This document shows, one piece after another, positions 24,340 through 34,434 of a DNA stretch of 34,434 bases. Numbering within the stretch: the first letter of the stretch is position 1; the number at the start of each line of letters is the position of its first letter. The position numbers and the translations under genes are program-made. The notes beneath the pieces were generated by a model. That model did no database searches, was not told the origin of the DNA, and was given only the letters and a program-made list of their open reading frames with translations. The stretch comes from Escherichia coli (GTDB taxonomy: Bacteria; Pseudomonadota; Gammaproteobacteria; Enterobacterales; Enterobacteriaceae): assembly GCF_003334385.1 (NCBI RefSeq), contig NZ_QOWN01000046.1; one strand, 5' to 3'.

Positions 24340-24954
24340 TGCTTGAGCGAAAAACCGCTGTACCGCCATCGAAACGGGCACATACTGGCAAAGTGGCCGT
24401 GAAAGAAAGCAATCAGCGATGGTGCTCTGACGGGTTCGAGTTCTGCTGTGATAACGGAGAGAGACTGCGTGTCACGTTCGCGCTGGACTGCTGTGACCGT
24501 GAGGCACTGCACTGGGCGGTGACTACGGGCGGCTTCGACAGTGAAACAGTACAGGACGTCATGCCAGGAGCGGTGGAACGCCGCTTCGGCAACGAGCTTC
24601 CGGCGTCTCCAGTAGAGTGGCTGACGGATAATGGTTCATGCTACCGGGCTAATGAAACACGGCAGTTTGCCCGGATGTTGGGGCTTGAACCGAAGAACAC
24701 GGCGGTGCGGAGTCCGGAGAGTAACGGCATAGCAGAGAGCTTCGTGAAAACGATAAAGCGTGACTACATCAGTGTCATGCCCAAACCAGACGGGTTAACG
24801 GCAGCAAAGAACCTTGCAGAGGCGTTCGAGCATTATAACGAATGGCATCCGCATAGTGCACTGGGTTATCGCTCGCCACGGGAATATCTACGGCAGCAGG
24901 CCAGTAATGGGTTAAGTGATAACAGGTGTCTGGAAATATAGGGGCAAATCCATA
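24340..24954 (+). mobile_element. IS2 remnant: 3' about 615 bp including the transposase (orfB) C-terminus and right inverted repeat; 5' part missing
   Basis: Matches my recollection of IS2 (InsD C-terminus ...[59 protein letters not shown]... ending ...TATAGGGGCAAATCCA); the same sequence recurs inverted at 34265-34434. Confidence 0.75.
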
Positions 24955-25103
24955 TCATATCATTTGCCCGTTTCCCGCCGTGCAGATCCGGTTTCCGGCT
25001 GAAGTGGATCCAGACCTGATTTGTTGCTGAGTATCGGTAAAAGAGCGGCTTATAAGCTATTCTGAAACATGGCAAGTGAATCTGGGCTGTATAATTCCGG
25101 CAA

Positions 25104-25586
25104 GTGTCATCTGTATTTAAAGGTCGTGTGAGTATGAAATTTATGGAATGTGCTGTCCGGGATGTGATTTATGGGACCAATGTCCGTATTGTCAAACCGG
25201 TCAACATTTATGAATGTGAACTCAGGGACAATGTGTTTGTCGGCCCCTTCGTTGAGATACAGAAAGGCTGTGTCATTGGTAGTGGAAGCCGGATACAGTC
25301 GCACACGTTTATTTGTGAGAACGTAACACTGGGGGAGAACTGCTTCATTGGTCATAACGTGACGTTCGCCAACGATCTGTTTCGTTCAGGAGCACCAGAT
25401 CCGTCACCGGATAACTGGATCAGCATTACCTTGGGGGATTCGGTTACTGTTGGCAGTGGAGCCATTATTCTGTCTCCGTATATATGCAGCGGAGCTGTTA
25501 TTGGTGCGGGTTCAGTTGTGGTAAAACCGATTGAGAACAAAGGCATTTATGCAGGAAACCCGGCAAGACTGCTCAGAATATTATGA
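25104..25586 (+). CDS. Hexapeptide-repeat (left-handed beta-helix) acetyltransferase; likely start at Met about 25134
   Basis: Repeated [LIV]-G-x-x-x-x-[IV] hexapeptide pattern (VIGSGSRIQ..., VTVGSGAIIL..., VIGAGSVVV); C-terminal ...GNPARLLRIL. Confidence 0.7.
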   Translation: MSSVFKGRVSMKFMECAVRDVIYGTNVRIVKPVNIYECELRDNVFVGPFVEIQKGCVIGSGSRIQSHTFICENVTLGENCFIGHNVTFANDLFRSGAPDPSPDNWISITLGDSVTVGSGAIILSPYICSGAVIGAGSVVVKPIENKGIYAGNPARLLRIL

Positions 25587-25592
25587 AAAAGA

Positions 25593-25616
25593 AAAGGGCC
25601 GTTACTGGCCCTTTTT
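25593..25616 (+). terminator. Rho-independent terminator after the acetyltransferase gene
   Basis: AAAGGGCC-GTTACT-GGCCCTTT followed by TTAT. Confidence 0.5.
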
Positions 25617-25799
25617 ATCAGAGGTAGGTCTGTGAATACGGCAGGTGTACAGAAATCGACTGCCGGGGATCGATTTCCAGGGCCGCCCGGTATTCTGCGT
25701 CAGTGATATCACCTTTTTTCAGTAAATAACGGGGTATGAAGGCCAACCGGACGAAAACGTACGTTAAGAATTTAATTTATTGATATTATTAAAATAATA

Positions 25800-26110
25800 A
25801 AAAGGCGTAGTTCACGATTTTCACGTTCCAGCTCTTTCAGACGCTGACGTTCAGCGGTGGTGAGCCCTCCATCACCGCCCCCGGTATCCCGCTCATGCTG
25901 GCGAACCCAGACACGCAGAGTCTCCGGCGTACAGCCAATCTTTGGAGCAATGGAACAAATTGTCGCCCATTGTGAGTCATATTCGCCCTGACTTTCCAGA
26001 ACCATACGGACTGCCCGTTGACGGACTTCGGGGGAAAAACGAGTATTTTTAGTCATCCTGTTTACCTCTTTATCAGGGTGTTTAGTCTCCAGGATTCCCG
26101 GGGCGGTTCA
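25800..26110 (-). mobile_element. IS629-like (IS3 family) left-end fragment with truncated orfA
   Basis: Starts with the terminal inverted repeat TGAACCGCCCCGGGAATCCTGGAGACTAAAC (minus strand); the 94-aa ORF equals the first about 84 aa of the full orfA at 32769 and then diverges into AT-rich sequence. Confidence 0.7.
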
Positions 26111-26168
26111 TATTGAGGGAAAAGTTCAATGCCCTCTGGGACAACAGCGAGGAAGACTGACCCCTCTC

Positions 26169-32237: not shown

Positions 32238-32243
32238 ATAATC

Positions 32244-32612
32244 TTATTTAATCCAAGATGTTTGATAAGTCCAGGATTTCAATCCTACTTTATTAATCTT
32301 ACTTGTATCACTGTTAAGCATTAGTGACTGGTTTGGTGAAACGCTTCCACTGAATGTGGTTCTGGAACCATCATTATAAATAAATTCACCTGAATTTATC
32401 ATTACTCCTTTAACTTTTCCTTCTTGAATTCCTTGCATACAATTAGAGTCATCTGTGCGATATACTAAACTTCCTGGAGATACAGAACTACTTCCGGTTA
32501 CAATGACGCATTGTTTGGGTGGAACAGCATCAGCATTCCAGCCATTGTTACCACCGGCAAAGGTATTTAAACTAACACAAAATAGTCCTAGAGCAAAGGC
32601 TGTTTTTTTCAT
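32244..32612 (-). CDS. cexE: Small secreted protein, dispersin (Aap)/CexE-like; predicted substrate of the Aat-like system
   Basis: 122 aa; signal peptide ending AFA/GG so the mature N-terminus is glycine; two Cys in the mature part; immediately upstream of the aatPABCD-like genes. Confidence 0.55.
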   Translation of the reverse strand: MKKTAFALGLFCVSLNTFAGGNNGWNADAVPPKQCVIVTGSSSVSPGSLVYRTDDSNCMQGIQEGKVKGVMINSGEFIYNDGSRTTFSGSVSPNQSLMLNSDTSKINKVGLKSWTYQTSWIK

Positions 32613-32768
32613 TTTTGATCCTTATGTATTGACTCGTAATATAAAGAGCACTATCTCCACCTACTATATACAAAAAAAAAAATCATTAGATAAATTAATA
32701 TCAATTTACTGGTACCCCCCCCCCCGGGAATCCTGGAGACTAAACACCCTGATAAAGAGGTAAACAGG

Positions 32769-33095
32769 ATGACTAAAAATACTCGTTTTTCCCCCGAAGT
32801 CCGTCAACGGGCAGTCCGTATGGTTCTGGAAAGTCAGGGCGAATATGACTCACAATGGGCGACAATTTGTTCCATTGCTCCAAAGATTGGCTGTACGCCG
32901 GAGACTCTGCGTGTCTGGGTTCGCCAGCATGAGCGGGATACCGGGGGCGGTGATGGAGGGCTCACCACCGCTGAACGTCAGCGTCTGAAAGAGCTGGAAC
33001 GTGAAAATCGTGAACTACGCCGTAGTAACGATATCCTTCGCCAGGCTTCCGCTTATTTTGCGAAGGCGGAGTTCGACCGCCTCTGGAAAAAGTGA
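32769..33095 (+). CDS. IS629-like transposase OrfA (HTH)
   Basis: 108 aa, [57 protein letters not shown]...; matches IS629/IS1203-type OrfA as I recall it. Confidence 0.8.
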
Positions 33096-33212
33096 TGCCA
33101 CTGTCAGCAACAGCGACATCATCCTGATAAACGCAGTGCCCGTGCGCAGCGCGATGACTGGCTGAAGAAAGAGATACTGCGCGTATACGATGAGAATCAT
33201 CAGGTATACGGT

Positions 33213-33902
33213 GTGCGTAAAGTCTGGCGTCAGTTGTTACGGGAAGGTATCAGAGTGGCCAGATGCACTGTGGCACGTCTCATGGCGGTTATGGGACTTG
33301 CCGGTGTTCTCCGGGGTAAAAAGGTCCGTACGACCATCAGCCGGAAAGCCGTTGCCGCAGGCGACCGCGTAAACCGTCAGTTTGTGGCAGAACGTCCTGA
33401 CCAGTTGTGGGTGGCTGATTTTACTTACGTCAGCACATGGCAGGGGGGCGTCTATGTGGCGTTCATCATTGATGTGTTTGCCGGATACATCGTGGGGTGG
33501 CGGGTCTCATCGTCCATGGAAACGACATTCGTGCTGGATGCACTGGAGCAGGCGTTATGGGCCCGTCGACCGTCCGGCACGGTCCATCACAGTGATAAAG
33601 GTTCTCAGTATGTATCGCTGGCCTACACACAGCGGCTTAAGGAAGCCGGATTACTGGCATCAACAGGAAGTTCAGGCGACTCGTATGACAACGCGATGAC
33701 GGAGAGCATCAATGGTCTTTACAAAGCGGAGGTAATACACCGTAAGAGCTGGAAAAACCGTGCAGAAGTGGAACTGGCCACACTCACGTGGGTGGACTGG
33801 TATAACAAGCGACGATTGCTGGAAAGGCTGGGCCATACTCCTCCGGCAGAAGCAGAAAAAGCTTATTATGCTTCCATCGGAAACGATGATCTGGCAGCCT
33901 GA
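33213..33902 (+). CDS. IS629-like transposase OrfB (DDE integrase core); the frame is open from about 33100 and would be expressed by -1 frameshifting from orfA
   Basis: rve-type core (...WVADFTYVSTWQGGVYVAFIIDVFAGYIVGW...HHSDKGSQYVS...YDNAMTESINGLYKAE...); the orfA end contains GGAAAAAG near the frame junction. Confidence 0.75.
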   Translation: MRKVWRQLLREGIRVARCTVARLMAVMGLAGVLRGKKVRTTISRKAVAAGDRVNRQFVAERPDQLWVADFTYVSTWQGGVYVAFIIDVFAGYIVGWRVSSSMETTFVLDALEQALWARRPSGTVHHSDKGSQYVSLAYTQRLKEAGLLASTGSSGDSYDNAMTESINGLYKAEVIHRKSWKNRAEVELATLTWVDWYNKRRLLERLGHTPPAEAEKAYYASIGNDDLAA

Positions 33903-34264
33903 GTTCACAGATAAAATACTCTCCAGGAAACCTGGGGCGGTTCACACTGCTTACACCCTTCAACATGATGCAGGAGAGGTGCGCCTGCAATCCGGGGAAG
34001 GTATAAAAAACAGCCTGTTGCGGTATAAAAATCGACCACGCGGAGAGAGAAACATACCGGGGTGATATGAAAACCGAAGAGTCGCATATGGCATAAGGCG
34101 CGGACTGAGTTATTGTCGTCTAATACTTAGTTTTTCAATTTCCTATACGTCTAGAAATAGAAAATAGTCATTCATCATAACCTTTACCATTTTATTGCTA
34201 TCTTACGTAGTAATAGTAAGCGTAAACCGACCGCCGTATGTAGCCATTAGACAAGAATTGGTAA

Positions 34265-34434
34265 TGGATTTGCCCCTATATTTCCAGACACCTGTTATCA
34301 CTTAACCCATTACTGGCCTGCTGCCGTAGATATTCCCGTGGCGAGCGATAACCCAGTGCACTATGCGGATGCCATTCGTTATAATGCTCGAACGCCTCTG
34401 CAAGGTTCTTTGCTGCCGTTAACCCGTCTGGTTT
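34265..34434 (-). mobile_element. IS2 right-end segment (inverted relative to 24340-24954), continuing beyond the window
   Basis: The reverse complement matches 24780-24954 nearly base for base (TGGATTTGCCCCTATATTTCCAGACA...). Confidence 0.75.

Follow-up and report, generated by a model that had tools for sequence, protein, structure and literature searches.

Nested inverted IS2 and IS629 remnants around a divergent aat/cexE-like islet in Escherichia coli

On a 34,434-nt stretch of Escherichia coli DNA (contig NZ_QOWN01000046.1; this whole stretch is referred to as the window, and all coordinates are window positions), an islet related to the aat dispersin-export genes lies between an inverted pair of IS629-type insertion sequences (ISs), and this pair in turn lies between two inverted IS2 fragments. 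Is the islet carried by a unit that inverts or transposes, or are the paired ISs the remains of a past assembly on which the recombination machinery of the host has acted? A preliminary description of the sequence had read the pairs as a mark of IS-mediated assembly and as substrates for homologous inversion, and had added that the interval between the IS2 ends could behave as a composite unit. Our best explanation, which we hold to be probable, is that the interval is a decayed IS scaffold around a low-G+C, horizontally acquired aat/cexE-like islet and that the IS629 pair has recombined by homologous exchange in the host. The assembly history and the role of the inverted pairs as recombination substrates are borne out by relatives with the cargo in the opposite orientation, by a poly-C junction shared among them, and by mosaics of single nucleotide polymorphisms (SNPs) in IS629. 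The proposal of a 9.3-kb composite transposable unit fails on four defective IS copies, the absence of a complete transposase, inner ends that face the cargo, and missing outer ends.

Two nested inverted pairs of defective insertion sequences

A repeat search of the window returned exactly two long inverted pairs, one nested inside the other. The outer pair (24783-24953 and 34264-34434; 171 nt, 100%) is clipped by the window end. The inner pair (25804-26106 and 32719-33021; 303 nt) is listed by the search as 100% complementary, and direct reading reveals a single mismatch (26104/32721) and a perfect run of 300 nt. We set the extents of the ISs by BLAST, using as references the annotated IS2A of strain K-12 and full-length IS629-type copies taken from E. 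coli records. The left ends of both IS629 copies and the right ends of both IS2 copies face the cargo, as had been described, and the layout given earlier is right to within 2 bp, with small corrections. The left IS629 terminal repeat at 26110 and the right end of the right IS2 at 34265 coincide with the BLAST ends, and the approximate distance between the IS2 right ends (9.3 kb) is measured as 9312 bp. The right end of the left IS2 is at 24952 rather than 24954, and the right IS629 copy, whose left end had been placed at about 32715, starts at 32719 in the BLAST alignment, with a poly-C run filling 32715-32725. The nesting as such is unremarkable, since it is one of only three possible layouts (along with interleaved and side-by-side) for two inverted pairs in an IS-dense region. 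Every one of the four copies is defective, and none is able to transpose. No complete transposase is encoded anywhere in the interval.

The left IS2 is a right-end fragment (24339..24952, plus strand) that corresponds to IS2 positions 718-1331 (96.1% over 614 nt to K-12 IS2A). It keeps the right terminal inverted repeat (IRR) and the 3' part of orfB, and lacks the left terminal inverted repeat (IRL) and orfA. A perfect hairpin (24295-24340; 20-nt arms, 6-nt loop) located upstream of a 215-aa gene ends where this fragment begins (24339). The right IS2 is likewise a right end (34265..34434, minus strand; positions 1331-1162; 96.5% over 170 nt), clipped by the window end; in relatives that reach past this point it comprises positions 607-1331 only and abuts an ISL3-family element. 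These identities assign both copies to IS2, and neither has the full length of 1331 bp, with two terminal repeats and orfA/orfB. Compared arm to arm, the two fragments are 98.4% identical over 615 nt; the ten differences are confined to positions 753 to 900, and the terminal 426 nt, which carry private alleles, are identical. In p1106-IncFII (NZ_MG825371.1), a full-length IS2 occupies the junction that the left fragment forms with the acyltransferase segment. No 5-bp IS2 target-site duplication was found, the left ends being gone from both copies and the flanks of the full-length IS2 in NZ_MG825371.1 being nonmatching. The IS2 pair could serve as a substrate for the same host recombination as the IS629 pair, with no sign of use: no relative compared differs by an inversion across it.

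The left IS629-type copy is a 307-bp left-end stub (25804..26110, minus strand; positions 1-307; 98.4 to 98.7% to full copies) with the terminal TGAACCG intact. It encodes a truncated OrfA only and has no IRR. The right copy (32719..33944, plus strand) extends from position 5 to position 1310 but lacks 80 bp internally, and BLAST splits it into two segments (32719-33103 and 33098-33944; reference positions 5-389 and 464-1310). The deletion (reference positions 390-469) lies between two CCACTG hexamers (microhomology at 33098-33103). At the left tip, nt 1-4 and nt 7 have been replaced, giving 11 consecutive C's (32715..32725, plus strand; sequence reading and alignment) where the canonical sequence is TGAACCGCCCC. 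The orfA gene of this copy is intact (32769-33095). On translation, the 80-bp deletion puts orfB in frame with orfA with a single orfA TGA between them, and the normal -1 frameshift now meets a stop, so that orfB is unreachable by that route. The ALIL frameshift pseudoknot is shortened by the deletion and scores 49.9 bits in Rfam against a gathering threshold of 50 (86 nt for a 117-position model). Both copies fall in the IS629/IS1203 group (97.9 to 98.7% to full 1310-bp E. coli copies, annotated by PGAP as IS3 or IS1203 family); we take the element to be IS629 from its terminal repeat. Intact terminal repeats together with a frameshift OrfAB transposase are found in neither copy, one being the 307-bp stub and the other having the poly-C tip and the 80-bp loss. 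The flanks of the right copy (GTA and CAC) do not form a 3-bp target-site duplication.

Sister plasmid forms and probable exchange between the IS629 arms

The islet occurs in related plasmids in two arrangements. Class A is the arrangement of the window and is 99.97% identical to it over 22244-34434; examples are the complete plasmid CP065621.1 (137 kb) and an NCTC-series contig of 210 kb (UFYM01000001.1). Class B is found in three independent assemblies (JBAMFE010000764.1, JBAMEG010000374.1, and metagenome contig ERZ27305943 k141_113477). It starts with backbone that is co-linear with window 16056-23274 (plus strand), followed by a full IS629 (minus strand) inserted in a parE-type gene. Its middle part consists of the same poly-C-damaged IS629 left end, cexE, aatPABCD, and an IS3-family fragment (referred to as T and described below), i.e., window 33103-25804 reversed. 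It ends with a second full IS629 (plus strand), an IS66 remnant, and an AraC-type regulator, and this AraC part is co-linear with class A sequence located about 6.5 kb beyond the right end of the window. The comparison with related plasmids that had been suggested thus yields a form with two full IS629 copies and an inverted cargo: the orientation of the cargo is opposite between the classes relative to both outer markers, and the immediate flanks differ. Orientation isomers therefore exist between lineages, contrary to one way in which the earlier reading might have failed. Target-site duplications proving independent insertions, the other way, were found at none of the examinable ends, including those of each IS and of the class B unit.

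The two classes differ by one mismatch in 21000-23274, by five differences in the 6.6 kb of cargo, and by four mismatches in 2179 nt on the AraC side (99.8% identical). By these sequence comparisons, they are sister forms of one recent plasmid lineage. The poly-C run is preceded by GGTA and contains 10 to 13 C's in every relative of either class; among the contigs of relatives (numbered with the prefix L), the site is common to L005-L014, L017, L019, L020, L027-L033, L036, and L037. Because this damaged junction is common to both forms, the IS629/cexE junction is of common ancestry.

An alignment of 17 IS629 copies provided a second line of evidence. All copies on the cexE side combine the damaged tip with private alleles (A/C/T) at positions 32/33/39, but past about position 300 the bodies of these copies in the window, L006, and L020 are not the same. 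On the T side, class B copies are of the standard type both at the tip and at these three positions (T/T/G). The left stub of the window carries the standard tip with the cexE-type A/C/T alleles, and from there to position 307 it matches the right copy without a difference. This SNP mosaic has the appearance expected from gene conversion and crossovers, not from fresh transposition. The inverted repeats are also long and similar enough for RecA-dependent exchange (IS629, 300 nt identical; IS2, 426 nt identical). In E. coli O157:H7, an inversion of 1.15 Mb has a 174-bp inverted repeat at its boundaries (PMC7430833), and by this precedent the runs of 300 and 426 nt are ample.

These observations are consistent with the following course of events. 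The islet and the IS3-family fragment would have been captured between a pair of inverted IS629 copies with their left ends towards the islet, a form preserved in the relatives with two full-length IS629 copies. In the lineage of the window, this IS629-bounded unit would have come to sit between two inverted IS2 right-end fragments. RecA-type gene conversion probably homogenised the two IS629 arms, and at least one crossover with endpoints in IS629 would have reversed the cargo relative to the backbone between the sister forms, accompanied by IS-adjacent deletions and insertions. The junctions on the T side differ among relatives (4 bp and 629 bp deeper in T, or 44 bp further out, compared with the window) and look like a series of nested IS-adjacent deletions; independent insertions are the alternative explanation for this series.

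Several points weigh against this account. A flip does not account for all of the differences between the classes: window 23275-25803 (about 2.5 kb) is missing from class B, as is the IS2/ISL3/IS66/IS110 tract of about 6.5 kb to the right of IS629. The T-side IS629 junction of class B lies 4 bp deeper in T (629 bp deeper in L009) and carries the standard alleles, not those of the window. The flipped orientation of the window's own form was not found among the class A contigs examined, and a scan of JGI metagenomes with a class A 40-mer (spanning the break between a 73-bp filler and IS629) returned one contig, in the orientation of the window, a single match being powerless to decide the matter. 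On the backbone side, the only trace of a flipped class B form is a 2.9-kb contig assembled with MEGAHIT (L023; backbone-IS629-T), which is a candidate exact isomer of class B but may instead be chimeric, joined across the 1.3-kb repeat. On the AraC side, a search using junction-specific proteins revealed no flipped class B form among the contigs read.

The outer junctions of class B also exist in plasmids without the cargo. The backbone/IS629 junction is followed by other DNA at the left end of IS629 in L018 (NCTC series), L025, and L026, and the IS629/IS66 junction is likewise joined to other DNA in L042 and L046, which makes these IS629 copies resident partners in recombination. L018 (UGAK01000001.1; 10184-12949), which has no aat islet, carries the parE-inserted IS629 followed by an FMO-like gene and by the acyltransferase segment in reverse relative to the window, and represents another IS629-associated rearrangement of the same backbone pieces. 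At the far junction, an IS110-family element of class A abuts the IS66 remnant at exactly the nucleotide where the right end of IS629 lies in class B (L008 2179/2180 and L006 17807/17808), which may be a coincidence or reflect a target preference of IS110.

Alternative explanations and known systems

Could the two orientations have arisen by separate placement of the IS629-bounded unit rather than by a flip in place? Two routes are conceivable, i.e., composite transposition via the two outer IS629 right ends, or two crossovers with IS629 copies that reside at the parE and IS66 sites, through which the unit could enter in either orientation. Class B does have two full IS629 copies with intact outward-facing right ends, its outer junctions exist in plasmids without the cargo, the two forms have different flanks and a different T-side junction, and four different IS629/T junction positions are known when the plasmid pAA K41V1 of enteroaggregative E. 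coli (EAEC) is counted. However, class B has no target-site duplication (outer flanks GGG and TAA), and the near-identity of both backbone and cargo favours rearrangement within one plasmid lineage. The double-crossover route, moreover, would still be homologous recombination in the same arms, and only the path would differ. We regard separate placement as unlikely, though it deserves to be kept in mind. An arrangement or orientation produced by short-read assembly through internal repeats is far less credible and can nearly be discounted. It is true that the window ends inside an IS2, that its size resembles that of short-read contigs of relatives (34.1 to 34.5 kb), and that most assemblies fail to resolve the repeats: in 328 of the 611 blocks of public assemblies returned by an exact look-up of the dispersin-like protein, the longest contig is 5 to 10 kb, i.e., the cargo is alone on its contig. 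Yet the same arrangement is present in the complete plasmid record and in the 210-kb NCTC-series contig, and the arrangement of the window is therefore not an assembly artefact.

Composite transposons of the Tn10/IS10 and Tn5/IS50 type resemble the locus in that inverted copies of one IS bracket a cargo, and class B has this form. Of the features of such transposons, however, the window retains only the flanking IS pair; outer ends, transposase, and target-site duplication are absent or damaged, and in class B the flanks are also unduplicated and the inner end on the cexE side is destroyed. An active composite transposon, whether bounded by IS2 (9.3 kb) or by IS629 (6.6 kb), is accordingly highly improbable in the window. 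IS629 or IS2 transposases might be supplied in trans by other copies. Both IS2 copies nevertheless lack IRL and orfA, the left IS629 lacks everything past position 307, and the right IS629 lacks the terminal TG and the frameshift region, while the termini that are present face the cargo and so do not bound a unit. Least plausible of all, to the point that we scarcely entertain it, is a programmed phase-variation switch for aat/cexE. As in the shufflon/Rci, Hin/Gin, and fimS systems, a segment between inverted repeats is found in nature in two orientations. In contrast to these systems, the window has no dedicated recombinase (every open reading frame [ORF] in 24000-34434 belongs to an IS, the acyltransferase, or an aat gene), no short crossover sites (the repeats are IS bodies), and no gene or promoter that is split by inversion, the 102-bp region upstream of cexE and the IS junction moving together with the cargo.

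The homologous exchange that we favour has a counterpart in the O157:H7 inversion mentioned above (PMC7430833), in which inverted repeats of a few hundred base pairs also bound a segment that is seen both ways in related genomes. The present case differs in that it concerns an islet of 6.6 kb on a plasmid, with IS629 remnants as the repeats, and in that adjacent deletions or insertions also separate the two forms; the crossover point is not locatable because the IS629 arms are identical. If the interval works at all, it is as a passive substrate for host homologous recombination. No regulatory effect of its orientation is evident, since the junctions of the cargo are inverted along with it. 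It is very unlikely that the islet flips appreciably in living populations and that its orientation alters the expression of the export genes, i.e., that it acts as an accidental phase-variation device. Were this so, the change in expression would come about by read-through from promoters in the flanking IS or backbone sequences or by the altered distance to the AraC-type regulator.

The islet, its surroundings, and their significance

Immediately inside the left IS629 stub lies T (26111..27216, plus strand), an internal fragment, lacking both ends, of an unnamed element of the IS3 family (about 1.67 kb). Its 338-aa transposase ORF (26169-27185) had been described as IS481-like. That label does not hold: the protein scores 108.6 bits against an NCBIfam cut-off of 224 for IS481 and passes that for IS3 (182.9 bits; cut-off, 160), and full copies of the parent element, which are present in many E. 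coli records (e.g., NZ_CP010123.1), are annotated as IS3 family by PGAP. A comparable arrangement exists in K41V1 (NZ_PP261916.1; L016 662-2657), in which T and an IS629 left end abut in the same orientation beside an aat cluster. The IS629-T stretch of K41V1 is 95.1% identical to the window over 1,458 nt including a 44-nt gap, and a search with window 26110-27216 gave 99.0%. Unlike in the window, T lies beside aatP rather than aatD, the IS629/T junction is 44 bp further out, IS629 is a 795-bp fragment, and the aat cluster is of the classical EAEC type (about 67% nucleotide identity to that of the window). The T/IS629 pair therefore accompanies two different aat lineages.

The cargo (27305..32612, minus strand) comprises six ORFs, all of them open in the window, and has a G+C content of about 29%, compared with 45 to 53% in the flanks. 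In the order of transcription, these ORFs encode a dispersin/CexE-like secreted protein (32244-32612; Pfam Dispersin on record for an identical protein), an AatP-like permease (31086-32147; FtsX, likewise), AatA-like (29890-31089) and AatB-like (29154-29984) proteins with no family match, an AatC-like ABC ATPase (28529-29161; ABC_tran on record for an identical protein), and an AatD-like acyltransferase (27305-28372; weak Lnt match), all on the minus strand. The order of a substrate gene followed by P-A-B-C-D is that of the Aat dispersin-export system, for which the islet is a candidate; the Lnt match is weak and the AatA- and AatB-like proteins are unmatched. The islet had been called an aat cluster; it is a homologue, but a divergent one, with only about 67% nucleotide identity to the annotated EAEC aat genes (including aatC) and to the TolC/ABC/FtsX cluster of enterotoxigenic E. 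coli. It is a putative export system and a third, divergent aat/dispersin-like lineage.

No close match to the cargo was found in PLSDB or among RefSeq complete E. coli genomes, and in the same two collections no record matched 80% or more of the whole interval, only the IS parts and the acyltransferase segment having close matches. By contrast with these collections, the 611 blocks from the protein look-up include infant-gut metagenomes, an NCTC-series assembly, and the complete plasmid CP065621.1, for which no match was found in the literature. Lesions occur in the cargo of some relatives: a 318-bp deletion in the aatB-like gene (L005; 12802-12806), a split aatD-like gene (L006; 14376-15307), and a split aatP-like gene (L011; 10466-11526).

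The two IS2-IS629 spacers differ. The left one (851 bp) begins with a segment of F-plasmid-type backbone (24953..25730, plus strand) that carries a hexapeptide acyltransferase gene (ORF 25104-25586). Window 24949-25730 is 99.2% identical to many F-type plasmids that have no IS2 there, and the backbone homology ends at 25730. The ORF matches NCBIfam hexapeptide-type sugar/acyl transferase families below cut-off only, and Pfam Hexapep is on record for the corresponding 150-aa product in relatives. An AT-rich filler of 73 bp (25731..25803), found in class A relatives only, separates this segment from the internal break in the IS629 stub. The right spacer (33945..34264; 320 bp, between the right end of IS629 and that of IS2) is a patchwork, of which only short pieces (25 to 73 nt; 89 to 100% identical) recur, scattered in other plasmids and genomes; the repeat search revealed no homology to the left-arm spacer. 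A single large inverted duplication, considered as an origin of the nested pairs, is ruled out by these nonhomologous spacers and is also contradicted by the unequal extents of the ISs on the two sides.

Beyond the right end of the window, relatives carry, next to the islet, an AraC-family regulator (272 to 277 aa) and a chaperone-usher fimbrial operon (a PapD-like protein, an usher, and a 186-aa subunit), in L008 1-2179 and L037 10362-18646. In class B, 285 bp separate this region from IS629; in class A, it is about 6.5 kb away. The neighbourhood resembles the Rns/AggR-type colonisation-factor regulons. On the other side, the backbone contains a 206-nt direct repeat (19964-20169 and 22414-22619; 95% identity; 2450 bp apart) beside two ParE-type toxin-antitoxin modules, and a 40-nt repeat family (19916, 22378, and 23538) lies beside the same modules. 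These repeats suggest duplicated toxin-antitoxin cassettes.

The locus is a case of ordinary plasmid evolution by IS mosaicism; the kind of structure is well known, the example is new, and nothing about it challenges current understanding. For assembly and typing, it matters that the repeats around the aat-like islet are not resolved by most short-read assemblies: given that the cargo is alone on its contig in more than half of the blocks (328/611), its orientation and its linkage to the AraC regulator and the fimbrial operon are usually undetermined. The cargo may merit more attention than its IS frame, being divergent and widespread in E. coli assemblies from human and infant-gut sources. 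For plasmid evolution, the interval provides a clean, small example of dead IS copies that still shape a virulence-type plasmid, acting not by transposition but through host recombination (i.e., conversion, inversion, and adjacent deletion).

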